The notes beneath the pieces are model-generated. The model worked only from the letters and a program-made list of their open reading frames with translations, made no database searches and had not been told where the DNA came from. 40,301 bases of DNA from PVC group bacterium (GTDB taxonomy: Bacteria; Auribacterota; Erginobacteria; Erginobacterales; Erginobacteraceae), in assembly GCA_043804695.1 (NCBI GenBank), contig JAZDIV010000019.1, positions 1 to 40,301 of the forward strand, written 5' to 3'. How positions within the stretch are numbered: position 1 is the first letter of the stretch; every line of letters begins with the position of its first letter. Shown piece by piece: positions 656 to 31,976 of the stretch. A program made the position numbers and the translations under genes.

Positions 656-3600
656 CTATCCGCGGTTTTATCCGCATCCGGACCCGGCGCTGAAGACGAT
701 TTCTTTCTTGACTTTCTCTTCCGGGGGCGGGCCGCCAGCAGCTTGCGGAACTCCTTGACCCGGTATCCCGACTGTGCGGCGAGTTCCAGCATGGTTTCGG
801 CGGCCCGATGATAAACCATCCCCCGGACCCGGGGCGGCTCTTCTCCGGCCCAGGCCCGCACCGATTTGACAACGGTGGCCGCGGCGATGAGCCAGAAAAG
901 GAGTTCTTCCAGTCTTTCTTTGTTAAACCAGAGGATGTTGTTGTCCCAGTGATAGAGGAGGAACCGCCGGACTTCGCTGTCCTTGAAGACCGGCTCGAGC
1001 AGGTAGAGATGATTCTTCGTCTTCACCCCCTCCATCCGGCGAAGATGCCGGAGGAGGATGACGATCAGGCTCAACTCTCTGCGCGCGGTCTCCCCGCCGC
1101 ACCCCAGGTCCTCAAAGAACCGGACCACCTGCTCGTCCAGGAACCACTCTTTCATCCAGAGAAAATCCGGGGAGGATTTTTTCCCGCTGGAGAGGGCTTC
1201 ACCGACCGTCGCCAGCAGGCTCCAGGTCAGGATCACCCGGAAAAAATCGAGCCGGTCATCGACCGTTCCCGGGATACCGGAGATGAGCTGCCGCAAGGCA
1301 GGGCGGCTGTACCGGGAACTGGTCCAGTGGGGGAGTGTTTCGGATGGAGCCAGCAGAAGGACGGCCGCGCTGAACCGCACCTGGCGTTCCACCTCCCCGG
1401 TCACATCCCGCGTCTGGCCTCTCTGGGAGAGGGCCCGGGTGAAAAATGTTTCCCCGGGAGACGCCAGCAGGGCGGAGACTTCCCGGGTGAGTTCATCGAT
1501 CGACGCCCGTTCTCCGGCCAGAGAGAAAAGGCGGCGGAATAAATCGGGACTGCAGAGATTCCGGAATGTGCGGTAGAGGGCGGCGAAATGAACCCGCTTC
1601 AGCGCTTCATTGATGTTGTCCACCCCTCTCCCGTCGAGCGACGCGCAGAGTTTGGCCAGGAAACCCCGGGCGTCGTCGCGGACTTCCCGGATGTCCGCAA
1701 AGACATGGGTCTGGTAGGCGCGGAGCATGAGGGACACCCCCTTCTCCCGGATCTCCCGGCTGGAACGAATGTATTCCAGGCCCGTCCGCAGGTCTTTGAA
1801 TATTGTGTAGTCGTCATCGGCCGCCCGGAGAGCGAGTCCCCGGGAAATATCGGTCCGGACCAGCTTTTTGCCCCCCCGGACCCCGGTTTCGGCCCGGGAG
1901 ACCGAGATCCGGATCCAGCCGCTCGTGTTCCGGAACCGGTTATTGTACACGATCAGGGAGCGCTCGTTCTCATAGCGGTTGGAGTAGGCGAAGACGTCCT
2001 CATTGACCGCCCCGTCTTCCAGGAAGAAATCATACAGATAAAAGTTGGCGACATCGCTGAAAAGGTGCCGTTTTTTCAGGAGGGGAAATAGTTCCTCTTC
2101 ATGGCGTTTGACCAGGTATCCGTCGACCGGCTCGTCCCAGTAGGCCTTGCGGTACTCCATGCCGTATTTCTCGGTCAGACCTTCGATCTGGCCGTGCCCG
2201 AAGAGCGGCAGTCCCGGCATCGTCACCATCATCGTGCAGACGCCGAAATACTTGTCCCCTTTTCCGAACTGCGCTACCGCGGTCGCTTCATCGGGGTTGT
2301 TCATGAAGTTGACGAAGCGTTTGAGAATCTGGGGATTAAATTCCAGGACCTCCTTGACAACCTGCCGGTACTGGTCGTTCATCTCCAGCTTCAGCATGTT
2401 CATGAAGGCGCTGTTATAGACCCGGTGCACCCCCAGCGACCGCACGAAATACCCCTCGAGCATCCAGAAAGCCTCGGCCAGGAGAAGCGTTTCCGGGATT
2501 TCCTCGGCCACCCGGTCGACAACGTCTCTCCAGAACTCCCGGGGGAAGAGCCGGTCGAATTCGCGGGCGGAGATCCCCCGGCCGGCCCGGGAAGGGATCG
2601 CGCCTCCCTCCCCGGCGGGAGGATACCAGAGCCGATGGAAGTGCTGCCTGGCCAGCACCATGGCGGCGTCGAACCGGATCACCGGGAAGGTCCGGGCCAC
2701 GTGGACGATGGTCCGGATGACAGCCTCCCGCACCTCCGCCTGGAGAAAATCAAGCTGGGCGGTGTCATTCCAGGGCATGCTGGTCCCGTCGTTGCCATGG
2801 TAGATGTACCGCTCCTCCCCGCTTTCCCGGTCGACCCGCTTGAAGACCACCGCCGCGTCGCTCCGGTTCCAGTAGCCGTCTTCCAAACAGACCGCCACCC
2901 GCGGATCGTCGGAGAGGTCCGGGCCGGTAAATCGGTAGTTCGGGAAGGGGGGGCGCGGGGCCTGGATAAACCACCCGGGGTGCTCGATCATCCACCGGGA
3001 GTAAATCCCCATATGGTTGGGCACCATATCGCTGGCGACCCGGATCCCCCTTCGCCAGGCCCGGTCCTTCAGATTGTCGATGGCCGCCTTCCCTCCGAGT
3101 TCGGCGGCGATGACATAGTCATAGAGGGAATACGCGGAAGCGTCCGCCTCGGGGTTGCCGCATCTGCGCTTGATCTTCCGGGAAGCCGGGCTGCGCTCCC
3201 AGAGGCCGATCAGCCAGAGGCTGGTGAAACCCCAGCGCACCAGGCAGTCCAGCTCCTCATCCGGGATCTGATCCAGCCGGGCGATCGGCCGGCCGTAGCG
3301 CCGGGAGAGCTGATCCAACCAGACATAGATATTCTTGGCCAGCAGGACGACTCGCGGCATCCAGTCCAGATCGGGGCTGAAGCGGTCATACGCCTCCCGG
3401 CCGCCGGAATGACCGCGGGCTCCCTCACCGATCCAGTCGCCGCCGATGTCTCCGGCCGGGACGGGGGGGAGGGCCGGGCCGGCCCCCGCCAGGCGGAGCT
3501 TCTCCTCCTCCCTGATGACGTCCCTGGTCACCATCAGGACTTCCAGTAAATCGGGGCTGAGAAGATCGATCCAGTTCTCCTTGATGTAGTCCAGCTGGCC

Positions 3601-8338: not shown

Positions 8339-8412
<74 letters not shown>

Positions 8413-8587: not shown

Positions 8588-8836
8588 ATGAAAGATGAAC
8601 AATTACTTGCACGAATTGTGTTAAATCCTAAGATTATGGTTGGGAAACCGGTTATTCGGGGAACTCGTCTAACCGTGGACTTCATTCTGAATTTACTCGC
8701 TCATGGGACGACTGAAGCTGAAATTTTAAATGAGTATGAAGGTCTTACTTATGAAGACATTCAGGCTTGCTTCCTTTTCGCGACTAAATCCTTAAAAGAT
8801 ACTGCTTTTATGCCTTTGGGTGTGGAGACCGTGTAA
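8588..8836 (+). CDS. DUF433 family antitoxin
   Basis: RIVLNPKIMVGKPVIRGTRLTVDFIL...YEGLTYEDIQACFLFA signature; GGAGG RBS before ATG 8588. Confidence 0.9.
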   Translation: MKDEQLLARIVLNPKIMVGKPVIRGTRLTVDFILNLLAHGTTEAEILNEYEGLTYEDIQACFLFATKSLKDTAFMPLGVETV

Positions 8837-9187: not shown

Positions 9188-9214
9188 ATCAGGGGCTCGT
9201 TAAGACAGACATAT

Positions 9215-9301
9215 CTTCCGGTGCCCAGCCCTCACTGTTCGGAAGCAAATGTTGAGGAAATCCCAGATTAACCACGCTCTGAGACACCCGTCGTCCCCGT
9301 T
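9215..9301 (+). repeat. Cassette-end repeat A, copy 1 (87 bp)
   Basis: CTTCCGGTG..CACTGTTCGGAAG, then TCCCAGATTAACCACGCTCTGAGA, then CCCGTCGTCCCCGTT (identical to 8400-8414). Confidence 0.95.
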
Positions 9302-9304
9302 AGC

Positions 9305-9337
9305 AAGCCCGGAGGGGATTAACCCTCCGGGCTTTTT
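9305..9337 (+). terminator. Intrinsic terminator after repeat A1
   Basis: AAGCCCGGAGGG-gattaa-CCCTCCGGGCTTTTT. Confidence 0.85.
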
Positions 9338-9365
9338 ATTTAAAAAGATAATCTCTAAATTTATT

Positions 9366-10707
9366 GGTTCCTCGCTATTTTCAGTGGCCCGAGGGTTCAG
9401 TATAAGGCATCATCTTATGCATGAAGACACCAGAAAAGTTGTTTAGTGAGTTGTTGGGTCTGGGCCCGGCGTGGGCAGTTGAAGATGCGACATTCAAGGC
9501 CGAAAATAACATTGTAGAGTTGCGCGTTAAAGAGACGCCTGAGCTTTGGAAGATAGAACGTTGCCCCCATGATGGAAGCGATGGCGTGACCTGCCATGAT
9601 CACATACGAGGGCTTCGATGGCGACATTTGAACGTGTTCAACAAAGAAGTTGAAATCGTCTGCGATCTGCCTAGAGGGAAGTGTCCGAAGTGCGGAAAAG
9701 TATGGCGCGTGACCCCACCGTGGGAAGGACGGGCGAAGCATTTTACGAAAGAGTTTGAAGCCTTCGCCCTGACCTTGATGCGGGAGATGCCGGTTAAAAA
9801 GGCCGCGGAGATTCTTGGCGAGCAAGACACCAGAATGTGGCGGGTTGTGAGTGCCTACGTGGAAGAGGCGTACAAGAGCGTGGATATGTCGGATGTTGTT
9901 TCCGTCGGGGTTGATGAGATGTCTCGGGCGAAGGGCCATCGCTACCTGACAGTGTTTGCCGATTTGGTGCTCAAGCGAGTGCTTTTTGCAACTCCCGGGA
10001 AAGACAGCGAGACGTGGGCGGAGTTTGTCAAGGCGTTGGAGGACCATACGGGGCAGGCGGAATCGCTTACGAGCGTATCTATGGATATGAGCAAGGCCTA
10101 TGCGAAGGGAGTGCGCAAGAACTGCAGCAATGCCCGGATAGTCTACGACAAGTTTCACGTGATTGCCCATGCCAACAAAGCGGTGGATCTTGTCCGTCGG
10201 AGCGAAGCCCAGAGTGGCCGCCCGAAGGTTCGGGAGGCACTGGTCAAGAGTCGTTGGATCTGGCTTAAGAACCCGGAAAATCTGACCAAGAAACAGAAAG
10301 CCCGATTGAAGCGGATCGACCAGGATATGCTGCTGACCGGAAGAGCATACCAGATGCGGCTGGCGCTGCAGGAGATTTACCGGCTCGGTTCTGTCACTGA
10401 GGCGGCCAAGCGATTTGGCGAATGGTGCCGCTGGGTTCAACGAGAAGCTCGCAGAGCCAACCGATGGCTTCTTTACCATATGTCCCAGGTTGCCGATATG
10501 ATCGAATCCCATATCGCTGGAATCCTGGCGCACTGGGATCAGGGTGTGACCAATGCTTTTATGGAAGGGATTAATAGTGTTTTCTCCGCTGTTCGACGCA
10601 AGGCTCGTGGGTATCGAAGCTCCCGGAATATGATTACTATGCTCTACTTTGTCGCCGGCAAACTTCCTTCACCTGCTGAACTCAGCCACTGAAAATAGCG
10701 AGGAACC
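9366..10707 (+). mobile_element. ISL3-family insertion sequence, intact
   Basis: Perfect 23-bp TIR GGTTCCTCGCTATTTTCAGTGGC; 8-bp target duplication AATTTATT (9358-9365 and 10708-10715). Confidence 0.95.
9421..10692 (+). CDS. ISL3 family transposase
   Basis: Zinc-finger Cys motifs, VGVDE, SMDMSKAY, YDKFHV, TNAFMEGINS, ARGYRS. Confidence 0.95.
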   Translation: MKTPEKLFSELLGLGPAWAVEDATFKAENNIVELRVKETPELWKIERCPHDGSDGVTCHDHIRGLRWRHLNVFNKEVEIVCDLPRGKCPKCGKVWRVTPPWEGRAKHFTKEFEAFALTLMREMPVKKAAEILGEQDTRMWRVVSAYVEEAYKSVDMSDVVSVGVDEMSRAKGHRYLTVFADLVLKRVLFATPGKDSETWAEFVKALEDHTGQAESLTSVSMDMSKAYAKGVRKNCSNARIVYDKFHVIAHANKAVDLVRRSEAQSGRPKVREALVKSRWIWLKNPENLTKKQKARLKRIDQDMLLTGRAYQMRLALQEIYRLGSVTEAAKRFGEWCRWVQREARRANRWLLYHMSQVADMIESHIAGILAHWDQGVTNAFMEGINSVFSAVRRKARGYRSSRNMITMLYFVAGKLPSPAELSH

Positions 10708-11387: not shown

Positions 11388-11403
11388 TCGCCACTAAAGA
11401 AAT

Positions 11404-11490
11404 CTTCCGGTGCCCATCCCTTACCGATTGGAAGCTGATCTTCAGATAATCCCAGATCAACCACGCTCTGGGACACCCGTCATGCCCGTT
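11404..11490 (+). repeat. Cassette-end repeat A, copy 2 (87 bp)
   Basis: CTTCCGGTGCCC...GGAAG...TCCCAGATCAACCACGCTCTGGGACACCCGTCATGCCCGTT. Confidence 0.95.
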
Positions 11491-15300: not shown

Positions 15301-16352
15301 ACGGGAGCACCTACACGGACCTTGCGCTCTGCTCTATCGCCAAGGGGACGCCGCCGCCGACGGTCACGCCCACGCTGACGCCCAGCCCGACGCCGTCGGT
15401 CACCCCGACCCCGAGTGTTACGCCGACACCGTCTCTAACTCCAACCCCCACCGCCTCAGTGCCTCCCAGCCCCACTCCGACCCCGAGCGCGGTGCCGACC
15501 GCTTCGGTCACGCCCACGCCTTCGCTACCTCCCACTCCGACTTCGACAGCCACACCTCCTCCCACCCCCACGCCCAGCCCCACCTGCGGTCCGACCATTG
15601 ACCCCCAGAGAGCGCTTACCGAGTCGGGGGACTATGACGGCGACGGGACGAGTGAGATCGCGATTTTCCGTCAAATCTCCGGCCTCTGGGCGATCCGGGG
15701 ATTAACGCGGATTCAATTCGGGGAGGGTACCGACCTGCCGGCCTCCGGTGATTACAATGGAGACGGGATAACGGATATCGCGATTTTCCGTCATAGCTCC
15801 GGCCTCTGGGCGGTCCGGGGATTGACCAGGGTTTACTTCGGGAATACCAATGATATTTCGATCCCCGGAGACTATGACGGTGACGGCTCTTGCGACATCG
15901 GCATCTTCCGGGACTCCTCCGGCCTGTGGGGGATCAGGGAAATTACCCGGACCTATTTCGGGACCGGGGGAGACTGGCCGGTGCCCGGCGACTTCGACGG
16001 GGACGATACCCGGGAGATCGCCGTCTTCCGGCAGGCATCAGGCCTCTGGGCGGTCCGGGGATTGAATAGAACATACTTTGGCGGCATCAACGACTGGCCC
16101 GCCGCCGCGGATTACTCAGGCGACGGGACCCGGGAGATCGCTATTTTCCGGCCTTGTACCGGTCTCTGGGCGCTGAAGGGATTGACCCGGATCTACTTCG
16201 GAAGATACACCGACTGGCCCCGGCCCGCGGATTACAACGGCGACCTGATGGATGATATCGGCATATTCCGGCCTGATTCAGCGCTGTGGGCTGTTAGAGG
16301 GGCAACCAGGATCTATTTCGGCACCAACGGCGACATCCCGGTAACGCGCTGA
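12366..16352 (+). CDS. Large secreted/surface protein: signal peptide, ~55-aa beta-propeller-like repeats, long Pro/Thr linkers, C-terminal FG-GAP-like module
   Basis: Repeated PQIALD..G.PHVTW...RIYYA..GSGWT units; TPTPSV tandem repeats; GDYDGDG..IAIFR..SGLWA repeats ending GDIPVTR; start codon uncertain. Confidence 0.8.
14305..14965 (+). repeat. 18-bp (TPTPSV) coding tandem repeat tract
   Basis: Dozens of TPTPSV units; an identical 70-bp block at 14692-14761 and 14782-14851. Confidence 0.9.
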
Positions 16353-16377
16353 TCAAGATAATTTAAACCGAGCAAAT

Positions 16378-16464
16378 CTTCCGGTGCCCGTCCCTCACCG
16401 TTCGGATGGCGATTTTGATGAAATCCCAGATTAACCACGCTCTGGGACACCCGTCATGCCCGTT
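16378..16464 (+). repeat. Cassette-end repeat A, copy 3 (87 bp)
   Basis: CTTCCGGTGCCCGTCCCTCACCGTTCGGATG...TCCCAGATTAACCACGCTCTGGGACACCCGTCATGCCCGTT. Confidence 0.95.
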
Positions 16465-16502: not shown

Positions 16503-16574
16503 TTGGAATCGAAGGATTCCAAAACACGCAACACCCTGGTGTTGTCCCGGTCCAAGACCAGGATCGTCCCCGTT
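16503..16574 (+). repeat. Triple-hairpin repeat B, copy 1
   Basis: TTGGAATC-gaag-GATTCCAA, CAACACC..GGTGTTG, TCCCGGTC-caa-GACCAGGA, then TCGTCCCCGTT (same as tRNA-Asp 3' end). Confidence 0.85.
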
Positions 16575-16736: not shown

Positions 16737-18420
16737 CCCGGATTATTCATGAGAAAGTGAAAATTGAGGCATAAAAAATGGGAAAGCTCCAAGCATTCTG
16801 TTAGAATGCAATTAGTTACGGTAATAACCAAGGAGCTTTCCCATGATCACTATACCTCAGCAGGCTGTTTTATTTCCAGAACTATTTTCCAGGCCTGTTT
16901 CTGTCAGCTTTTCCAGGGACCATCTCAGCTCTGACGGAGGCTCGATTCTCCTGAAAGCCGTTGATCAAAAACTTGGCCTTACTCAGCTTGTCGCCGAAAC
17001 TTTTATTGACCGGCGGCAACCGGAAAAGATACGCCACGAAATCCTCGACCTTACCCGGCAGCGGCTCTTCAGCCTGGCTTCCGGTTACCCCGACTGTAAC
17101 GATGCCGGAAGATTGAAACAGGACCCGGTGCTCAAACTCATGTGTGATCGTGATCCGATTACGGGAGATGATCTCGGCTCCCAGCCGACACTTTCCCGGT
17201 TTGAAAACAGCGTCACTCGTTTTCAACTTCTTGAACTATCTACCCGGCTGGCCGAAAAAGTTCTTCGCCACCAGCAAAGCCGCCGGCGCGGCAAGCACAA
17301 ACCGAAACGAATCATCATCGACATTGATCCAACCCACGACGCGACTCACGGGCAACAGCAGATGACATTTTTTAACGGCTATTACGATACCTGGTGTTAC
17401 CTGCCCTTGGTCGTTACCATCTCCTTTAATAAAGAGCGCAGGAAGTACCCCATCGCCGTGATTCTTCGTCCGGGCAACGCCGGAGCAATGACCGGAACAC
17501 TGGCGATCCTTAAACGACTTGTCCCTCGTATCAGATCCTTTTTCCCGAAAGGACGCCTCTTCTTTCGAGCTGACGGCGCTTACTGCAACCCGGATCTCCT
17601 GGACTGGCTGGAAGAAAAATCGATTTATTACACAATACCGATCGGCTCCAACCCCGTACTCGAAAGAATCTCAGCCCCCTGGATGGATCTGGTCCGTCAG
17701 GCGACGCATCTCCATGGCAAGAGCGTTACCATCTACCGAGAAGATTCCTACCAGGCCGGTACCTGGTCTCATCCCCGCCGTCTTGTCTATAAGGCGGAAG
17801 TCCTGGTCCAGTGGAGCGATTACCGGGATAATGCCCGGTACACCATCACCACCCTCCCACATAACTTGGGCGCGGAAGGTGTTTTCCGTTTCTATTACGG
17901 TCACTCCGACATCGAGAATTCGATCAAAGATTTCAAGAATGACCTCAGCCTGGACCGAACGAGCTGTACCTCCTTTTTAGCAAATCAACTCCGGGTTATC
18001 TGGTCTCTATCCGCGTATATTCTGATGCAGGCTCTCCAGGAACGGATCAGCGATCCGATCCTATCGCGGGCGACGATGGGTACATTACGCGAACGTCTCT
18101 TTAAAATCGCCGTCCGGGTAAAGGAATCGACCCGTCAGATCACCTTTCTTTTGACAACGCACTACCCGTGGCAAGGCACCTGGTTGGCGTGCGCCCGTAG
18201 TGTCGGCGCTGTTGCCGGATGAGGCTGGAAAACACAAGTAAATTTTACTGCTCCTATTCCTTTGGGGCGGTGTCTGTTTCAAAACGTTCTTTTGCCCTGT
18301 GCCCTATCCGAAAAGTTTCTCTCCTGTTCCCGGTTTTCGATTTAATCTATCCGATGGAGTAAAGATTCACAATTTGATGATAAAAATAGCCATATTTTCA
18401 GACTTCATGAATAATCCGGG
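16737..18420 (+). mobile_element. IS1380-family insertion sequence, intact
   Basis: 16-bp TIR CCCGGATTATTCATGA / TCATGAATAATCCGGG; 4-bp target duplication CTAA on both sides. Confidence 0.93.
16843..18222 (+). CDS. IS1380 family transposase
   Basis: LSSDGG, GYPDCNDA, LGSQPTLSRFEN, IDIDPTHDATHGQQQ, FRADGAY, ENSIKDFK motifs. Confidence 0.95.
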   Translation: MITIPQQAVLFPELFSRPVSVSFSRDHLSSDGGSILLKAVDQKLGLTQLVAETFIDRRQPEKIRHEILDLTRQRLFSLASGYPDCNDAGRLKQDPVLKLMCDRDPITGDDLGSQPTLSRFENSVTRFQLLELSTRLAEKVLRHQQSRRRGKHKPKRIIIDIDPTHDATHGQQQMTFFNGYYDTWCYLPLVVTISFNKERRKYPIAVILRPGNAGAMTGTLAILKRLVPRIRSFFPKGRLFFRADGAYCNPDLLDWLEEKSIYYTIPIGSNPVLERISAPWMDLVRQATHLHGKSVTIYREDSYQAGTWSHPRRLVYKAEVLVQWSDYRDNARYTITTLPHNLGAEGVFRFYYGHSDIENSIKDFKNDLSLDRTSCTSFLANQLRVIWSLSAYILMQALQERISDPILSRATMGTLRERLFKIAVRVKESTRQITFLLTTHYPWQGTWLACARSVGAVAG

Positions 18421-20397: not shown

Positions 20398-20572
20398 CGC
20401 CTTTCTTAAAGAATAATAAGGAGTCAAATTGGTGTGATTGCCTGGATCCTCAGCCGGGTTGAAAAGTACAACTATAAATGCCCGGACAAGCTTCACATCC
20501 CGGGGACATCCCCCCGGAAAAGAAGCAACGACGTTTTCATAAACGGCCACAAAATCAGCAAGCCGGACAGAT

Positions 20573-20659
20573 CTTCCGGTGCCCGTCCCTCACCGTCCGG
20601 AAGCTGATTCTCAAAGAATCCCAGATCAGCCACGCTCTGGGATGTCCGTCGTCCCCGTT
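20573..20659 (+). repeat. Cassette-end repeat A, copy 4 (87 bp)
   Basis: CTTCCGGTGCCCGTCCCTCACCGTCCGGAAG...TCCCAGATCAGCCACGCTCTGGGA; 20646-20661 identical to 8401-8416; no terminator follows. Confidence 0.95.
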
Positions 20660-21393: not shown

Positions 21394-21410
21394 TCGCTAA
21401 CCAGACAAAT

Positions 21411-21497
21411 CTTCCGGTGACCGTTCCTTACTGTGTGGAAGCCAATTTTGAAGACATCCCAGATTAACCACGCTCTGGGATGTCCGTCATGCCCGTT
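21411..21497 (+). repeat. Cassette-end repeat A, copy 5 (87 bp)
   Basis: CTTCCGGTGA...GGAAG...ACATCCCAGATTAACCACGCTCTGGGATGTCCGTCATGCCCGTT. Confidence 0.95.
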
Positions 21498-21535: not shown

Positions 21536-21607
21536 TTGGAATCGAAGGATTCCAAAACCAGCAGCACCCGGAGGGTGTTGTCCCGGTCAAAGACCGGGAT
21601 CGTCCCC
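21536..21607 (+). repeat. Triple-hairpin repeat B, copy 2
   Basis: TTGGAATCGAAGGATTCCAA...CAGCACCC-gga-GGGTGTTG-TCCCGGTC-aaa-GACCGGGA-TCGTCCCC. Confidence 0.85.
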
Positions 21608-21672
21608 TCCGAAAAAGATTAAAATCTTACTTGCGCATTGAAAAAGATATGGTATCATCTATAATACCAAGC

Positions 21673-22334: not shown

Positions 22335-22540
22335 TCTGTCGCTCATTATATCCAAGCTCCGGGCCATCTCCATCTTCCCGGTCACACTCCCGCCCTCTTT
22401 CGGAAAACGAAATTTTCCGTCTGAAACCGGATCTTCGACAAGATCACCTACCTTGACGCCTTAAGACACCGGGCGTGGCGCCTTCAGCAACACCTACGGT
22501 GACGCCATAAGTCAACTTTTTCGCTTCAAACCGGACAAAT

Positions 22541-22627
22541 CTTCCGGTGCCCATCCCGCACCATCTGGAAACGTATCCTCATGGAATCCCATGTCAACCA
22601 CGTTCTGGGACACCCTTCATGCCCGTT
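22541..22627 (+). repeat. Cassette-end repeat A, copy 6 (87 bp)
   Basis: CTTCCGGTGCCCATCCCGCACCATCTGGAAA...TCCCATGTCAACCACGTTCTGGGACACCCTTCATGCCCGTT. Confidence 0.92.
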
Positions 22628-25700: not shown

Positions 25701-26590
25701 AACCGATGTCGGGAGGTGGAACCGGAGTCTCGGTTTCCGGGCAGTCGGTGAAACTGTCTGTCGGCCACCACAGCATTGAGACCTTGAAGATCGTCCCCGG
25801 ACCCATCCCTCAACCCACTCCGGACTATATAGTTCTTCAATCCGGTGATTACAACGGTGACGGAATATCGGACATCGCCATCTTCCGGCAGTCGACCGGC
25901 CTCTGGGCGGTGAGGGGTTTGGGAAGGGTGTATTTCGGTACCGCCGGAGATATCCCGGTCAGCGGGGATTATAACGGCGACGGCATCGCTGATATCTCGG
26001 TTTTCCGTCCCGCCACCGGCCTCTGGGCGATTAAATGGATCACCCGGCTTTATTTCGGGGGCGGTGACGATCTACCCGTGCCCGGAGATTTTAACGGTGA
26101 CGGATCGTGCGACGTCGCCGTCTTCGGTAAAACAACCGGCCGGTGGAGCTTGAGGGATATCACCCGGGTTTACTTTGGGACTTTGAACGATCGGCCGGTT
26201 CCGGGAGATTACGACGGCGACGGTGGGACGGATATTTCCATCTTCCGGCCGGCTTCCGGCCTCTGGGCCATCCGGGAGATCAGCCGATGTTACTTCGGAG
26301 CCGGCGGGGACCATCCGGTCCCGGGGGTTTATAGTTGGTACGGCCGGTCATCCGCGAGCCCTTTCAAAGATCAGATCGCTATCTTCCGACCCTCCTCCGG
26401 ACTCTGGGCAATTCGGGGCATTACCCGAGCGTATTTCGGAACCTCGGGTGATACACCGCTTCGCGGTGACTTTGATGCCAATTCTCTCGACAATATAGCC
26501 ATCTTCCGCCCTTATTCGGGCCTATGGGCGGTGAGAGAAATTACCAGAGCTTATTTTGGCACTTTCGGTGATCTTCCGGTGACGAGATAG
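22784..26590 (+). CDS. Secreted GH38 (alpha-mannosidase-like) glycoside hydrolase with C-terminal FG-GAP-like module
   Basis: SSHQDLGW, SEGVVRQF..GK.W, LPQI-like IPQIL, FRW, IVFNTLPWERS and VPSLGYRTY GH38-type motifs; likely start at ATG 22892 (signal peptide); ends GDLPVTR. Confidence 0.8.
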   Translation: MHIRQVFILLSNIEQSHTIQFSLTRGRKTVFQGSRLMALVLTGCLLSLFPAVGTVSAQNWGALSDGSINIMLSSHQDLGWENSIPYCNNVRNEKIIKPVLEWMGQTDTDYRYTFEYVYSLMHYLETYPDALETVREHTQSGRFQWGAAYIDFYESLYSSEGVVRQFYLGKKWMKTALGGGCDSRTYINVDPPQRGLQIPQILNKAGVDFLVTSRTKSGFLRWSSPNAHAGSTDDYSVLVYSNGQYGIPWIWSWEGTWNEGMLSPYAYQFKDDSGPPPAYPSSLISAQTKVLFYWSQYTDPTVHQGSPPGTTWEGYFQDSGFPARFPILYSNDMGIPAPYLGVPTGDYASDLVKDWNQWKEHTDPGWPEIRLSTCDQALGAFWSAATEMGASFEEWMGERPNLWLYSHGPGHHWAGSAIREAGRLLPAAETFATIDCLLSGDFSSYPSEYLLEGWKGAIFPGHGWGGVDGEDTDNRFLWAAQTGERVGREVLTDALESIAARVDTAAGGDPIIVFNTLPWERSDPVICRVEPEGENWSIVDADWAPVTCQVLDDAGGSKEIVFIARNVPSLGYRTYYLLEDGEGGTMPARSAVPGENQYYQWELSPGGFTSLTDRELNVEILATAKSYGGKSFRGAECFSMGACDCGTGTCCCGAFEVQTLTQPVPSEDFRQMSDYGVGWTEVEEGPVRNAFAYEVAVENCTASQKLIFYRDIKRIDCEFSMQSWNGTGYREWRMALPLNLDKGFVSYEVPMGVVQVGRDDLPFPAGGHFNEQTCSYVTPREVQNFISVSGPNPAFGEQTFGVTMSSSVAVSNYIFPPNNDVGPDSQGQIANPIPQPILMATRHSNKSDAEGGNLWSQAGDHNYHFSIFSHEGDWRNGWRSAVQSNSPLIPVVGVAPSAGADLPEEKSFCSVSPDNIVLTAFKKREDDVFTTEGTADENLIVRFYDIEGRDTSDAEIRFFFTVNGAEKTNIIEEPMSGGGTGVSVSGQSVKLSVGHHSIETLKIVPGPIPQPTPDYIVLQSGDYNGDGISDIAIFRQSTGLWAVRGLGRVYFGTAGDIPVSGDYNGDGIADISVFRPATGLWAIKWITRLYFGGGDDLPVPGDFNGDGSCDVAVFGKTTGRWSLRDITRVYFGTLNDRPVPGDYDGDGGTDISIFRPASGLWAIREISRCYFGAGGDHPVPGVYSWYGRSSASPFKDQIAIFRPSSGLWAIRGITRAYFGTSGDTPLRGDFDANSLDNIAIFRPYSGLWAVREITRAYFGTFGDLPVTR

Positions 26591-26678
26591 ATACTGGTTA
26601 TTGGAAAACTTGTTATTAGTAATTGCTAACCGGTATTAGAAACCGGTCGCCGCTTACCGATTACTGCTTACTGCTTTT

Positions 26679-26771
26679 CCCCCGGCGCCCGCCTTGCACC
26701 GTCCGGAAGTAAATCTTTAATATATCCCAGATCAACCACGCTCCCCGGTGACAACCGGGGTCATGCCCGTG
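26679..26771 (+). repeat. Cassette-end repeat A, copy 7 (93-bp variant)
   Basis: CCGGCGCCCGCCTTGCACCGTCCGGAAG...TCCCAGATCAACCACGCT-CCCCGGTGACAACCGGGG-TCATGCCCGT. Confidence 0.9.
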
Positions 26772-27124: not shown

Positions 27125-29841
27125 CTTTTTTCCGAAGATGTTTTATCTGCTCGATCCTCCCGAGTGTCTTTCTCCTGACCCCGGCGCCCCGGGGGCAGGC
27201 GGCTCCCCGGTACCTGAGGACCAATCAGCGGGGCTATCTCCCCGGCGATACCAAGGTGGCGATCGCATTTTCCGATGACGACCTCTCCGCGCTATCCTAC
27301 CGCCTGATCGACTCCGCCACCGGCGAGACCGCCTTCGGTCCCCAGGGCATGGGTGCGGATGCCGGAAGCTACTGCGCCTTCTCCCATAACTACCGGCTCG
27401 ATTTTTCCGCTTTCACCGGGTGCGGCACCTATCAAGCGGAACTCAACGATGGGAGCGCAGAATCTTATTACTTCCTGATCTCTCCCAACGCCTATGAGGG
27501 GACCCAGGAGGAGATCCTGGAATATCTCCGTTCTCAACGCTGCGGTTATAACCCGTTCCTCGACGCCACCTGCCATACCCATCCCGAATCGGCTACCGAC
27601 GGAGACGCCTGGAAGGTGGACGCGGGCGCTTTTGCCGACATGTCCGGGGGATGGCACGACGCCGGCGATTACATCAAGTTCCTTCTGACCGTCAGCAATG
27701 TTCTCGACCTGATGCTATTTACCTACCGGGAGAACCGGGGTAAGTTCGCCGACGACTACAGGGCCGACGGCACTCCCGATTCCAACGGGATCCCGGATAT
27801 TCTCGACGAGGCCAGGTACGGTCTCGATTGGGTCTTGAAGTTAAAAGCAGTTCCGGGCCGGCTCTATTATCAGGCAGGGGGGGAGGAGGACCATTCCAGC
27901 GGCTGGCGCCTTCCCCAGAATGATAATACCAATTACGGATATAGCGGCTACCGGCCCGCCTACCAGGGGATCGGCGCCAATATCGCCGGACGCTCGGCGG
28001 CGGCCTTTGCGATGGCCTACCTGATCTGGAAGAACGATCTCGGTGATGACGCCTACGCCGCCGCCTGCTGGTCCGCCGCCACCGAGCTCTATTCGCTCGC
28101 CTGGAGCAACCTTACCGCCCGGGACTCGTATCCTTCCTGGTTTTACGACGAAACGTTCTTTTACGACGATCTCGAGCTGGCCGGGGTGGAGATGTACAAG
28201 GCAAGCGGAGATTTCAATTACCTCTCCGACGCGGTTTACTGCAGTTCGCTGGCCGGCTCCTCCTGGGGCTGGTTCGATTGGGGGAACATCCAGTCGCTTG
28301 CTCATTACGAACTCTACCCCCACGCCGATTACTCCACCCAGAGCCAGCTCCAGCTTTATCTTCGCCAGGACCTGGAGAGTAACCTGAATCAGGCCCTGAC
28401 CAACCCCTTCCGGGTATCCACCATTTACGACTGGGGTTCGGCGGCGGTCATGACCGGGACGGTGGTCATGTGCGATTTTTACCGGAAGCTCTTCCCTCAG
28501 GATACGACTTATGCCGCCCTCCACGACGAGGTAAGGGACTATCTTCTGGGAAAGAACCAGTGGGGAGTTTCCTGGGTGGTGGGGCAGGGAGATAACTATG
28601 CCCGGGACCCTCACAGTCAGGTCTCCGATATCACCGGGATCGATATACACGGAACCTGCATCGAGGGTCCGATGGCCCAATCGACCTGGGACGGTATGGG
28701 GATCAGCCTCAAGGACCCGGACGAGTATGCCGCCTTCCAGTCCGGGGCCGCCGTCTACCACGATGACGTCAACGACTGGGCTACCAACGAACCAACCATC
28801 TGGCAGGCCTCCCTTACCCTCTGTATGTTATCTAATCTGGCTCCTCCGACTCCGAATATGACGCCCACTCCGACACCGATCACACCCACACCGACACCAA
28901 CTCCATTTGGCGATAAAACCCCGCCGCCTTCGCCGACCCCGTCCGTGACTCCGACGCCATCCCGGACACCTACGACAACACCGCCGCCGCCGGTTCCACC
29001 GACAGCACCTCCCCACACGCCAACCGCCGTTCCCGCGACGCCGACCCCGGCACCGACTACCCCGACCCCGGTTCCTCCCACTCCCACTCCCGGTTCCGAC
29101 GCGCCGCCCTGGATCTATGACTACGACGGTGATGGCACCTCCGACATTACCATCTTCCGGGGGAGTTCAGGCCTGTGGGCGGTGAGGGGGATAAGCCGGG
29201 TTTATTTCGGTTCCTCCTCCGATCTTCCAGTCCCCGGAGACTACAGCGGTGACAAAACCACCGATATCGGAATATTCAGAGGCAGTTCGGGCTTATGGGC
29301 AATTCGAGGAGTAACCCGACAATATTTCGGTTCTTCCACAGATCAGGCCCTCCCGGGAGATTATAACGGTGATGGTTCCTGGGACATTGCCATATTCAGG
29401 GGAGGCAGCGGTCTCTGGGCTATCCATGGTTTGACCCGGATTTATTTTGGAACGCTGAATGACGAACCTGTCCCAGGCTATTACAATGGAGATGGAACAG
29501 AGGATATCGGGATATTCCGGCCGAGCTCAGGTCTCTGGGCGCTCCGGGGGATTAGCCGGATCTATTTCGGCGGTTCAAGTGACACTGTCGTTCCCGGCGA
29601 CTACGACGGGGATGCTACCTGGGAGACCGGCATCTTCTGCTCATCATCGGGTTTGTGGGCTGTACGGGATGTTACCAGAGTCTATTTCGGGGCCAGCTCC
29701 GACCGGCCGCTTCCGGCCGATTATAGTGGGGACGCAATAGACGATGTGGGAATATTTCGGCCAACTTCCGGTTTATGGGCAGCCAGAGGGATCACCAGGG
29801 TTTACTATGGAACTTCCGGCGACATTCCGGTGACAAGGTAA
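27121..29841 (+). CDS. Secreted GH9 glycoside hydrolase (Ig-like N-domain, GH9 catalytic domain, Pro/Thr linker, FG-GAP-like C-terminal module)
   Basis: TNQRGYLPGDTKVA, SGGWHDAGDYIKF, DYLLGKN.WG.SWVVG.G...PH, YHDDVNDWATNEPTI; ends GDIPVTR. Confidence 0.9.
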   Translation: MTFFRRCFICSILPSVFLLTPAPRGQAAPRYLRTNQRGYLPGDTKVAIAFSDDDLSALSYRLIDSATGETAFGPQGMGADAGSYCAFSHNYRLDFSAFTGCGTYQAELNDGSAESYYFLISPNAYEGTQEEILEYLRSQRCGYNPFLDATCHTHPESATDGDAWKVDAGAFADMSGGWHDAGDYIKFLLTVSNVLDLMLFTYRENRGKFADDYRADGTPDSNGIPDILDEARYGLDWVLKLKAVPGRLYYQAGGEEDHSSGWRLPQNDNTNYGYSGYRPAYQGIGANIAGRSAAAFAMAYLIWKNDLGDDAYAAACWSAATELYSLAWSNLTARDSYPSWFYDETFFYDDLELAGVEMYKASGDFNYLSDAVYCSSLAGSSWGWFDWGNIQSLAHYELYPHADYSTQSQLQLYLRQDLESNLNQALTNPFRVSTIYDWGSAAVMTGTVVMCDFYRKLFPQDTTYAALHDEVRDYLLGKNQWGVSWVVGQGDNYARDPHSQVSDITGIDIHGTCIEGPMAQSTWDGMGISLKDPDEYAAFQSGAAVYHDDVNDWATNEPTIWQASLTLCMLSNLAPPTPNMTPTPTPITPTPTPTPFGDKTPPPSPTPSVTPTPSRTPTTTPPPPVPPTAPPHTPTAVPATPTPAPTTPTPVPPTPTPGSDAPPWIYDYDGDGTSDITIFRGSSGLWAVRGISRVYFGSSSDLPVPGDYSGDKTTDIGIFRGSSGLWAIRGVTRQYFGSSTDQALPGDYNGDGSWDIAIFRGGSGLWAIHGLTRIYFGTLNDEPVPGYYNGDGTEDIGIFRPSSGLWALRGISRIYFGGSSDTVVPGDYDGDATWETGIFCSSSGLWAVRDVTRVYFGASSDRPLPADYSGDAIDDVGIFRPTSGLWAARGITRVYYGTSGDIPVTR

Positions 29842-29903: not shown

Positions 29904-29939
29904 CTGTGGACTGCTTACCGATTACTGCTTACTGCTTTT

Positions 29940-30032
29940 CCCCCGGTGCCCGCCCCTCACCGTCCGGAAGCAAATCTTAAAGGTATCTTAAATTAACCAC
30001 GCTCCCCGGTGACAACCGGGGTCATGCCCGTT
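29940..30032 (+). repeat. Cassette-end repeat A, copy 8 (93-bp variant)
   Basis: CCGGTGCCCGCCCCTCACCGTCCGGAAG...TTAACCACGCT-CCCCGGTGACAACCGGGG-TCATGCCCGTT. Confidence 0.9.
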
Positions 30033-31803: not shown

Positions 31804-31889
31804 TTTTTCGTAATTTCTTGTTCAATTTCCTTTTCTCCAACTAATTCCGGGAAAATTAACAACAATAGATTTTATGCGGATCGATGGAT

Positions 31890-31976
31890 CTCCCGGTGTC
31901 CATTCTTTACCGTACGGAAAGCGATTTTGATGAAATCCCAGATAAGCAACGCCCTGGGATATCCGTCATTCCCGTA
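31890..31976 (+). repeat. Cassette-end repeat A, copy 9 (87 bp, diverged; distal array boundary)
   Basis: CTCCCGGTGTCC...TACCGTACGGAAAGCGATTTTGATGAAATCCCAGATAAGCAACGCCCTGGGATATCCGTCATTCCCGTA, followed by an imperfect hairpin to ~32011. Confidence 0.88.

Follow-up and report, generated by a model that had tools for sequence, protein, structure and literature searches.

Recombinases whose own gene is disrupted on integration are described as exclusively archaeal in the portion of the published survey that we draw on (PMC8371274), and those covered there are tyrosine recombinases. In these 'suicidal' integrases of the SSV1, pTN3 and pT26-2 type, the recombination site lies inside the integrase gene, the target is usually a tRNA gene, the split gene comes to flank the element, and its fragments persist in chromosomes, where gene capture follows (PMC8371274, same portion). 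The locus described here resembles them in these respects. It is the whole 40.3-kb contig C19 (hereafter the window) of an 88%-complete metagenome-assembled genome of a PVC group bacterium, labelled G000, and it carries nine copies of a repeat, repeat A, all on the + strand and spanning 9.2–32.0 kb. Repeat A is the C-terminal tail (the last ~29 codons, on the opposite strand) of a gene for a large serine recombinase (LSR). It very probably represents the distal junction (attR) of mobile elements of Candidatus Auribacterota, whose LSR inserts at the 3' end of tRNA-Asp, or in related elements of tRNA-Glu or tRNA-Gln, from an attP inside its own gene.

The system works like the archaeal family without being a member of it, the enzyme being a serine recombinase in a bacterial host and not an SSV/Phage_integr_3 tyrosine recombinase in an archaeon. 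The outcome of integration also differs. In the archaeal cases, as far as the same portion of the survey goes, the catalytic part is lost (PMC8371274), whereas here the loss is confined to the last ~30 residues, past the recognised domains, in whose place come ~13 residues read from the antisense strand of the tRNA. Because only a short tail is lost, the integrated LSR gene may stay active.

In its Resolvase, Recombinase and zinc-ribbon domains, its palindromic attP of ~50 bp and its hybrid attL and attR, the system is like known large serine recombinases (phiC31, Bxb1, A118, Ccr). Classic LSR systems have attP next to the int gene instead of inside it, and their attB usually falls in a protein gene and not at a tRNA 3' end. 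We know of no LSR whose tail is swapped on integration, and of no array of many attR sites at one attB. Mycobacteriophage BPs reportedly has its attP inside the 3' end of the repressor gene, so that integration by its tyrosine integrase alters the C-terminus of the protein and hence its behaviour. Unlike in BPs, the split gene here is the recombinase itself and not a repressor. The integration-dependent immunity of BPs and its relatives, in the parts of the two accounts used here, is related in logic (PMC4557955, PMC3694055).

Repeat A is the tail of a recombinase gene on the opposite strand

A repeat search returned seven equal copies of 102 nt and two longer variant copies in the window, and each copy of repeat A starts a few bases past the stop codon of a + strand gene. 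A sequence-only reading had attributed the constant length of most copies to phased integrase arm sites or to a folded single-stranded DNA or RNA substrate. The length itself was confirmed: the copy at 9215–9301 reads CTTCCGG...CCCGTT over 87 nt, and copies 1–6 and 9 all measure 88 nt between A/T-ATC and the G of CCCG, which equals 87 nt by the earlier anchors (copies 7 and 8 measure 94 nt between the same 88-nt anchors). A covariance model built from the nine window copies found 62 homologues in 31 fetched sources, 54 of them full length. Lengths of 88 nt (n = 35), 91 nt (n = 7) and 94 nt (n = 5) predominate, i.e., 47 of the 54 copy lengths differ by multiples of three, and the other seven copies measure 86, 89, 107 or 128 nt. 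The fixed length is a coding constraint and does not reflect helical phasing of binding sites; repeat A has 87 nt because these are 29 codons of the LSR C-terminal tail.

The first minus-strand frame is open in 49 of the 54 copies, and the other two minus-strand frames have stops in 40 and 50 copies, respectively. Conservation is periodic by three, with the weakest sites at third codon positions (P-value = 0.005). The ratio of nonsynonymous to synonymous polymorphism (pN/pS) of the open frame is 0.41 in 35 copies and 0.34 in the seven equal-length window copies, compared with 1.04 and 1.12 in the remaining antisense frames; a value of 0.56 is obtained for the sense frame with the same third position, which, however, is interrupted by stops in 14 of the 54 copies. 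Translation of all nine window copies gives G(H/D/N)(D/E)G(C/H/Y)PRAWLIWD...FRTVRDGHRKI, with a stop following within a few codons; eight of the nine are open through the repeat (copy 8 alone has an internal stop). Furthermore, a tblastn search with LSR P0002 matched all nine window copies on the minus strand through residues 542/544–570/576, at 55–72% identity.

The link to an LSR comes from two metagenome contigs, L174 and L175. On both, an open reading frame (ORF) with Resolvase, Recombinase and Zn_ribbon_recom domains runs on the strand opposite to repeat A, crosses the downstream hairpin, the core that repeat A has in common with tRNA-Asp and the entire repeat, and stops at the repeat's 5' edge. 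The repeat A model matches these contigs at L174:2899-3017 and L175:9102-9220, on the strand opposite to the ORF, and the C-terminus of the encoded LSR reads ...RHQSGGHDGCPRAWLIWDILALSFRTVRDGHREIRFFVYQ, ending GGHDGCPRAWLIWDILALSFRTVRDGHREIRFFVYQ before the stop. An att site linked to a gene of the Resolvase, Recombinase and zinc-ribbon type is thus present on L174, on L175 and on G053:C7, where a C-terminal LSR fragment is still contiguous with a repeat A copy, and not inside the window, in which tblastn with P0002 detected no recombinase body. Because repeat A is a detached LSR gene tail, it lies antisense to the cargo, starts just past stop codons, ends in a tRNA 3' end and has a whole-codon length.

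Two conserved hairpins had also been proposed for repeat A. Both inverted repeats are present in the window, including the extended hairpin-2 stem ACATCCCAGA/TCTGGGATGT of copy 5, and the hairpin-2 pattern has seven matches there, all on the + strand, against 0.27 expected. They are conserved only as sequence, and only in the window. In the 62 homologues the helices are paired in 74.5% of cells, compared with 75.1% after shuffling, with covariation of 0.127 and 0.129, respectively, and neither RNAalifold nor pair counting detected covariation for either hairpin. The three pairs in the middle of hairpin 2 are not formed in 29–30 of the 62 sequences, and a whole subfamily has GTCAATAATTGTCAACGC replacing its 5' arm. 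Mutual information in the alignment is dominated by subfamily splits, and single-copy folds are no better than shuffles for two of the three copies tried. The P half-site described below accounts for the 'conserved loop' and the 3' arm of hairpin 2, and the leader noticed upstream of several copies is made up of the last few codons and the stop of the recombinase tail. As signs of neutral decay, the sequence-only reading had named missing covariation together with free indels; covariation is absent, but the indels come in threes. Its view that the repeat is under selection and not decaying neutrally survives in the form of a site-specific recombination junction, with a different mechanism.

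The tRNA anchor and the attachment site within the recombinase gene

The last 12–13 nt of repeat A match the 3' end of the tRNA gene heading the array. In the window, copies 1 and 4 end in CCGTCGTCCCCG, the same 12 nt as tRNA-Asp (13 nt in copy 1), and the other copies end in CCGTCATGCCCG or close variants. The tRNA-end pattern has ten matches in the window against 2.1 expected, eight of which fall on the tRNA and on copies of repeat A, those of 94 nt (7 and 8) being left unmatched. The array is headed by tRNA-Asp in seven genomes (the window and six further) and by tRNA-Glu in two, and no tRNA was detected in the other 21 fetched stretches. The tails follow the tRNA: CCGTCGTCCCCG is found in Asp arrays, and CCGTCGGGGTCG or CCGTCAGGGTCG, equal to the tRNA-Glu end, in Glu arrays. 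In L070, tRNA-Asp encodes CCA and both repeats have CCA after the tail. A 28-nt pattern retrieved 26 metagenome contigs, and on 12 of these a co-oriented tRNA-Asp lies upstream of the repeat. This is the layout of a tRNA-anchored island, in which a full tRNA gene marks one end and its 3' end recurs as direct repeats inside the island or at the far end. A G+C hairpin stands downstream of the core in most copies: as re-measured by folding, 42 of the 53 flanks reach -10 kcal/mol or lower, and z is -2 or lower in 34 of the 53 (a simple terminator scan had caught only some of these hairpins). We read the tRNA-Asp 3' end together with the following terminator hairpin as the putative attB.

At sites that include the P' side, attP forms an imperfect palindrome centred on GCCCG, with arms of 20–21 nt that are 86–90% complementary and lie 6–10 nt apart, in line with an LSR att site of ~40–50 bp built as an imperfect inverted repeat around a short central crossover. 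Such an imperfect palindrome is the usual form of a serine-integrase attP. The P half-site has the sequence CACGCTCTGGGAYRYCCGTCAT, and the attP of ~60 bp is laid out as CACGCTCTGGGA...GCCCG...P'. It lies inside the recombinase ORF, so integration would split the gene.

Two forms of the LSR C-terminus were found. The LSRs P0002 and L175 carry the repeat-encoded tail, and P0003 and P0004 (560 aa) end in ...RHQSGGDDGARTRNPRIDSPIL, the terminal part GGDDGARTRNPRIDSPIL closely matching the antisense reading of the window tRNA-Asp, GDDGTRTRNTRIDSPVL. In relatives, LSR genes converge on tRNA-Asp, tRNA-Glu or tRNA-Gln and end in antisense tRNA codons. The ORF of the G002:C12 LSR (72% identical; L184:1474-3183, + strand) overlaps tRNA-Asp (3129-3202, - strand) tail to tail, the G009:C234 LSR (69% identical) abuts tRNA-Glu, and the more distant LSRs of G027 and G019 (35% identical) abut tRNA-Gln. 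A matching attB and the hybrid attL are accordingly represented in genomes by G002:C12, by G009:C234, by the P0003 and P0004 C-termini and by the repeat tails equal to a tRNA end. These genes place attP within the 3' end of the LSR gene and attB at the tRNA 3' end, with two alternative predicted C-termini.

The only LSR gene of G000 itself (on C49, 46% identical) runs at its end into the antisense strand of a partial tRNA of another kind. This partial tRNA (G000:C49:1960-2040, L100; reverse complement ...AGAGGTTCGAGCCCTCTCCGGGGAGCCA) was not called by ARAGORN. The locus has the look of a further case of this architecture, at a different tRNA; LSRs of this type were rejected as partners of repeat A, as they show no phyletic link with it. 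In addition, small GIY-YIG nuclease genes are found beside tRNA-Asp (L067:787-1074, G001) or inside a duplicated 5' fragment of tRNA-Glu (L145:1960-2290, G005), and two repeat A copies of G008:C110 (L072:4412-4536 and 8679-8803) contain, just before a tRNA-Glu-type tail, a 19-nt palindrome, CTGCCTGCCGGCAGGCAGG, that looks like a small inserted hairpin element.

The cassette array and its distribution

In the window, at least nine recombination junctions form an array anchored at tRNA-Asp and bound toxin-antitoxin and enzyme cassettes (Table 1). Each copy of repeat A probably marks the far end of one past insertion, and each junction closes a cassette consisting of a terminator hairpin and one or a few cargo genes. 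The toxin-antitoxin cargo between copies comprises DUF433/PIN, Gp49/HTH (twice), MazEF, AbiEi/AbiEii and a PIN_3 gene. The other cargo consists of secreted-looking proteins, three of them large, and includes BNR/FG-GAP, GH38-FG-GAP, GH9 and peptidyl-arginine deiminase proteins. G+C hairpins similar to the one after copy 1 follow tRNA-Asp and copies 2, 3, 5, 6, 7 and 9. In copy 7, a CCCCGG-TGACAA-CCGGGG hairpin stands directly before the acceptor-like tail, at the place of the T arm of a tRNA, and the inverted partial copy after copy 4 may, in our reading, be a remnant of the P' half-site.

Table 1. Coordinates of the tRNA anchor, the repeat A copies and associated features in the window.
Feature	Position	Strand	Remarks
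tRNA-Asp(GTC), head of the array	8339..8412	+	last 13 nt, CCCGTCGTCCCCG, are the core common to repeat A; ends ...GAGTCCCGTCGTCCCCG
Repeat A copy 1	9200..9301	-	encodes GDDGCLRAWLIWDFLNICFRTVRAGHRKICLS, then stop; + strand ends CCCGTCGTCCCCG, a tRNA-Asp-type tail
G+C hairpin with T run, B'-type, terminator-like	9305..9334	+	example; directly after the core
Repeat A copy 2	11389..11490	-	encodes GHDGCPRAWLIWDYLKISFQSVRDGHRKI...; closes the first Gp49/HTH cassette
Repeat A copy 3	16363..16464	-	encodes GHDGCPRAWLIWDFIKIAIRTVRDGHRKICSV, then stop; after the gene of a 1328-aa BNR/FG-GAP protein
'Family B' mimic of the tRNA-Asp 3' half	16535..16572	+	GGTGTTGTCCCGGTCCAAGACCAGGATCGTCCCCG; own terminator follows; second copy at ~21572-21608
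Repeat A copy 4	20558..20659	-	encodes GDDGHPRAWLIWDSLRISFRTVRDGHRKI...; tRNA-Asp-type tail; followed by inverted partial copy GATGACGGATATCTCAAAGCG
Repeat A copy 5	21396..21497	-	encodes GHDGHPRAWLIWDVFKIGFHTVRNGHRKICLVS...; closes the second Gp49/HTH cassette
Repeat A copy 6	22526..22627	-	encodes GHEGCPRTWLTWDSMRIRFQMVRDGHRKICPV, then stop
Repeat A copy 7	26664..26771	-	94-nt variant with two extra codons; encodes GHDPGCHRGAWLIWD...
Repeat A copy 8	29925..30032	-	94-nt variant; only window copy with an in-frame stop (WLI-stop-D)
Repeat A copy 9, last of the array	31875..31976	-	encodes GNDGYPRALLIWDFIKIAFRTVKNGHREI...; followed by a hairpin and, 300 nt on, by tRNA-Pro (minus strand)

Two insertion sequence (IS) elements are inserted within the array. 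An ISL3-family element at 9365-10686, with 26-nt inverted ends (ATTGGTTCCTCGCTATTTTCAGTGGC), interrupts the leader of the first Gp49/HTH cassette, and an IS4-like DDE_Tnp_1_4 transposase gene lies at 16843-18222, after copy 3. Three unrelated large cassette proteins (BNR/PPC, GH38 and GH9) have in common a C-terminal FG-GAP-like repeat module with a 120-nt period (15620-16350, 25840-26590 and 29110-29840), each located immediately before repeat A. The module also ends cassette proteins of relatives and could serve the secreted proteins of the cassettes as a common domain for sorting or anchoring. The family B mimics (GGTGTTGTCCCGGTYCAAAGAMCCGGGATCGTCCCCG) each have a hairpin before them and a terminator after them. 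They also occur in L018 (G010:C31) at 300-800, and in G010 they form gene-less tandem mini-units of 100-200 nt behind tRNA-Asp. They may be extra attB-like sites, or att sites of another element.

Among 101 related genomes (G000 included), the repeat A family is present in 25, with eight of eight genomes in the same family and seven of eight in a second family, mostly as co-oriented clusters. The related loci that bear it belong to Candidatus Erginobacter, Euphemobacter, Tritonobacter and 'PVC group bacterium', Erginobacter lying within Candidatus Auribacterota. A pattern scan of the genome collection gave 36 loci; 30 were scanned with the model, of which seven match, and the remaining six are on three contigs matching places already scored in G001, G006 and G053. 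Searches of phages, plasmids and viral contigs gave no match for repeat A, and the same was true of the LSR.

Comparison among these genomes indicates that cassettes change their neighbours. The Gp49/HTH cassette with a homologous leading hairpin is found after copy 1 in the window, after tRNA-Asp itself in G007 and after a family B site in G010. Similarly, the MazEF cassette and its hairpin follow copy 2 in the window and another repeat in G001:C17. The core is the exact point at which cassettes break. In the congeneric genome G001 the locus of the window (PAS-domain gene, tRNA-Val, tRNA-Asp) recurs with a completely different set of cassettes, and no synteny of the distal flank between G000 and G001 was detected within 19 kb. 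Among listed sequencing runs, no RNA run contains the window DNA. Three DNA sequencing runs share only about 1/10 of sampled words with the window and, at 85% likeness, represent contigs of relatives; on one such contig an end like that of copy 4 runs into a hairpin of the copy-3 type (joint 20658 to 16485), which is too weak to count.

Arrays with parts of this layout have been described in other systems. Prochlorococcus tycheposons likewise have a tRNA as the seed, older material pushed outward, partial tRNA copies between elements and integrase-less remnants, as given in the part of the preprint drawn on here (bioRxiv 10.1101/2020.12.28.424599). Unlike tycheposons, for which that part describes mostly tyrosine recombinases and remnants that are partial tRNAs only, the junctions here keep an in-frame recombinase tail, and the cassettes are small and promoter-bearing. 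In layout, the array is also like sedentary chromosomal integrons of the Vibrio type, with co-oriented small cassettes, many of them toxin-antitoxin, a family-specific repeat of ~100 nt, variable content and a recombinase in trans. It differs from them in having no attC features and no IntI or attI, in its tRNA gene anchor and in a repeat that is a gene fragment.

Competing explanations, proposed mechanism and implications

Several observations weigh against the interpretation of repeat A as the attR of LSR elements. No locus was found with a complete integrated element and both of its ends, and a search with the model and the peptide detected no repeat at the far end of the G002:C12 element within 9.6 kb past the LSR. 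The cognate LSR was not found in G000, and close LSR relatives (63–72% identity) occur in only three of the 25 repeat-holding genomes. The commonest tail, CATGCCCG (23 of 54 copies), matches no tRNA found, and tRNA identity is exact only in a minority; a tRNA ending in CATGCCCG was not found in G000, and in the 101 genomes there were only isolated pattern matches that differ at the would-be T arm. The second Gp49/HTH cassette has a different leading sequence. The selection signature was possibly laid down before integration and does not show that the window copies still function. Finally, standard LSRs recombine attP with attB only, so that a shuttle or an alternative-attR model has to be invoked for insertion to recur at one tRNA and for cassettes to lack an LSR.

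Part of this would be accounted for if the repeat A copies were inert scars, i.e., dead 3' recombinase fragments of old insertions, and the cassettes ordinary island genes that no longer move. The missing LSR body in the window and missing cognate LSR in G000, the in-frame stop in copy 8 and the two IS elements within the array fit this explanation, and the pN/pS signal could be inherited from divergence of the LSR lineage before integration. We nevertheless regard inert scars as unlikely, since the same cassettes stand behind different left partners across genomes with breaks exactly at the core, the congeneric genome has wholly different cassettes at the same tRNA locus, the frame is open in most copies, and the P half-site block is the best-conserved part of repeat A. 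A fossil variant is the alternative in which nine separate insertions had their recombinase parts deleted, the selection signature being inherited from before integration.

Repeat A is neither an integron attC site nor an RNA motif. A non-canonical attC, with the window as an integrase-less attC cluster (CALIN) served by an IntI encoded elsewhere, is suggested by the co-oriented, toxin-antitoxin-rich array with repeats just after stop codons, by the many copies ending in G/TT, and by the occurrence of IntI above the cut-off in 24 of the 101 related genomes. No IntI at an E-value of 1e-30 or better was found in G000, which has only an internally deleted intI on C32. (This integron-integrase-like ORF, G000:C32:273-1178 or L098, lies at the contig start and is without model positions ~110-248.) The sequences themselves speak strongly against attC. 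The duplex of R'' (RYYYAAC) and R' (GTTRRRY) from a copy's own flanks has a mean of -4.88 kcal/mol, compared with -4.58 kcal/mol for cross-pairing, which is marginal (P-value = 0.047, permutation), the triplet after the core is CCA instead of GTT in 13 of the 54 copies and varied otherwise, and, with hairpin covariation absent, the single hairpin expected of attC is not supported. The arrays beside IntI that showed repeats (G001:C7, G003, G058) carry other repeats, canonical attC in form at G001:C7, and the repeat A model, run with filters off over 94.7 kb surrounding 19 intI loci, gives no more than two weak matches, of 13.1 and 9.6 bits. An IntI match is also missing from four repeat-bearing genomes with a completeness of at least 94%. 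Since the coding and tRNA evidence also has no place in it, this explanation is highly improbable.

Equally little can be said for a structured 3' untranslated region RNA of the cassette mRNAs (stabiliser, processing signal or ribozyme) that ends at the terminator hairpin. The location between stop codons and strong hairpins, several G-U pairs on the + strand and some strongly conserved loop bases would be expected of such an RNA, but the pairing and covariation equal shuffled controls, hairpin 2 is absent from a whole subfamily, the tail varies with the tRNA gene nearby, a dependence not expected of an RNA function, and the conservation is the codon pattern of the other strand. At the gathering score, Rfam identified three tRNAs only in the window, and no family overlapping the repeat reached an E-value below 0.8 in a search to E 10. 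The folded substrate of the sequence-only reading, in single-stranded DNA or RNA form, is not supported, given the missing covariation, the missing Rfam match and the marginal flank pairing.

The remaining proposal, that repeat A is the P arm of a tyrosine integrase attP with phased arm-type sites, can be dismissed as scarcely credible: the fixed length, the recurrence of CCGT(C) within the 88-nt unit (positions 14, 24 and 77) and a core equal to a tRNA 3' end, as is usual for such enzymes, agree with it, but of 35 copies only 17, 15 and 27, respectively, have the CCGT motifs, PF00589 genes are missing from the arrays and their surroundings in the 10 genomes checked (the sole same-contig case is 340 kb away), G000 has only XerC, XerD and the intI remnant, with a dif-like site unrelated to the repeat, and a serine recombinase ORF reads through the repeat. 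The canonical dif-like site, GGTCGTGATAATGTTCATTATGTAAAGT, is located at G000:C52:30654 and is probably the chromosome dimer resolution site. Near-identical integrases of ~337-360 aa (Int_N and Phage_integrase domains; L145, L146, L143 and L144 in G005, L147 in G006) lie ~150-200 nt upstream of tRNA Lys/Glu, Arg, Met and Lys(ctt), on the 5' side and divergent, which is an unusual placement for a tRNA-associated integrase, and often at contig starts that share the same 439 nt. The 337-aa integrases beside the G005 tRNA genes were rejected as the recombinase of repeat A, as no repeat A is nearby.

With repeat A taken as the attR of LSR elements, the following course of events is proposed. In the unintegrated form, the LSR ORF would read through the P' half-site and the core and then ~29-35 further codons. 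Integration would leave the LSR body beside the tRNA (attL), now ending in a few antisense-tRNA codons. The tail codons would be moved to the opposite end of the element together with the P half-site and the core, to form attR, i.e., repeat A. Recombination by the LSR at repeat A is suggested by this arrangement of the sequences. The crossover is probably at the central CC/CG of GCCCG, which would account for the retention of the tRNA's own acceptor strand and of CATG in most repeats. Hybrid tails such as CATCCCCG (2 of 54) and tRNA-type tails (8 of 54) would need other crossovers or mismatch resolution.

For the cassettes without an LSR, we tentatively propose a shuttle, which we hold to be possible without favouring it. 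A small LSR element would integrate at the tRNA and excise with a more distal attR, taking the intervening cassettes with it; a later excision with its own attR would leave the cassettes behind and restore attB. Of about the same standing, or slightly less likely, is the extension by which the LSR and its detached tails would constitute an integron-like bacterial platform for gene capture. The tRNA 3' end and its terminator would then take the part of attI, and each repeat A would be both a usable attR and an interchangeable last 'exon', so that distal excision would collect cassettes together with a new tail, precise excision would leave cassettes and regenerate attB, and the tail swap would serve as a switch of direction or stability.

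The lesson for annotation is that fixed-length intergenic repeats with 'hairpins' can be gene fragments of the other strand. As far as that published survey goes, together with a non-exhaustive literature search for a serine recombinase with attP in its own gene that did not extend to subscription journals, the self-splitting architecture is archaeal, and here it occurs in a bacterial phylum with a serine recombinase. Its milder form, the swap of a C-terminal tail, suggests a simple state-dependent control of an enzyme class that is widely used in genome engineering, for which repeat A yields a candidate attP/attB pair. For the host, the finding offers a concrete origin for a hypervariable, integron-like, toxin-antitoxin-rich cassette island at a tRNA gene.

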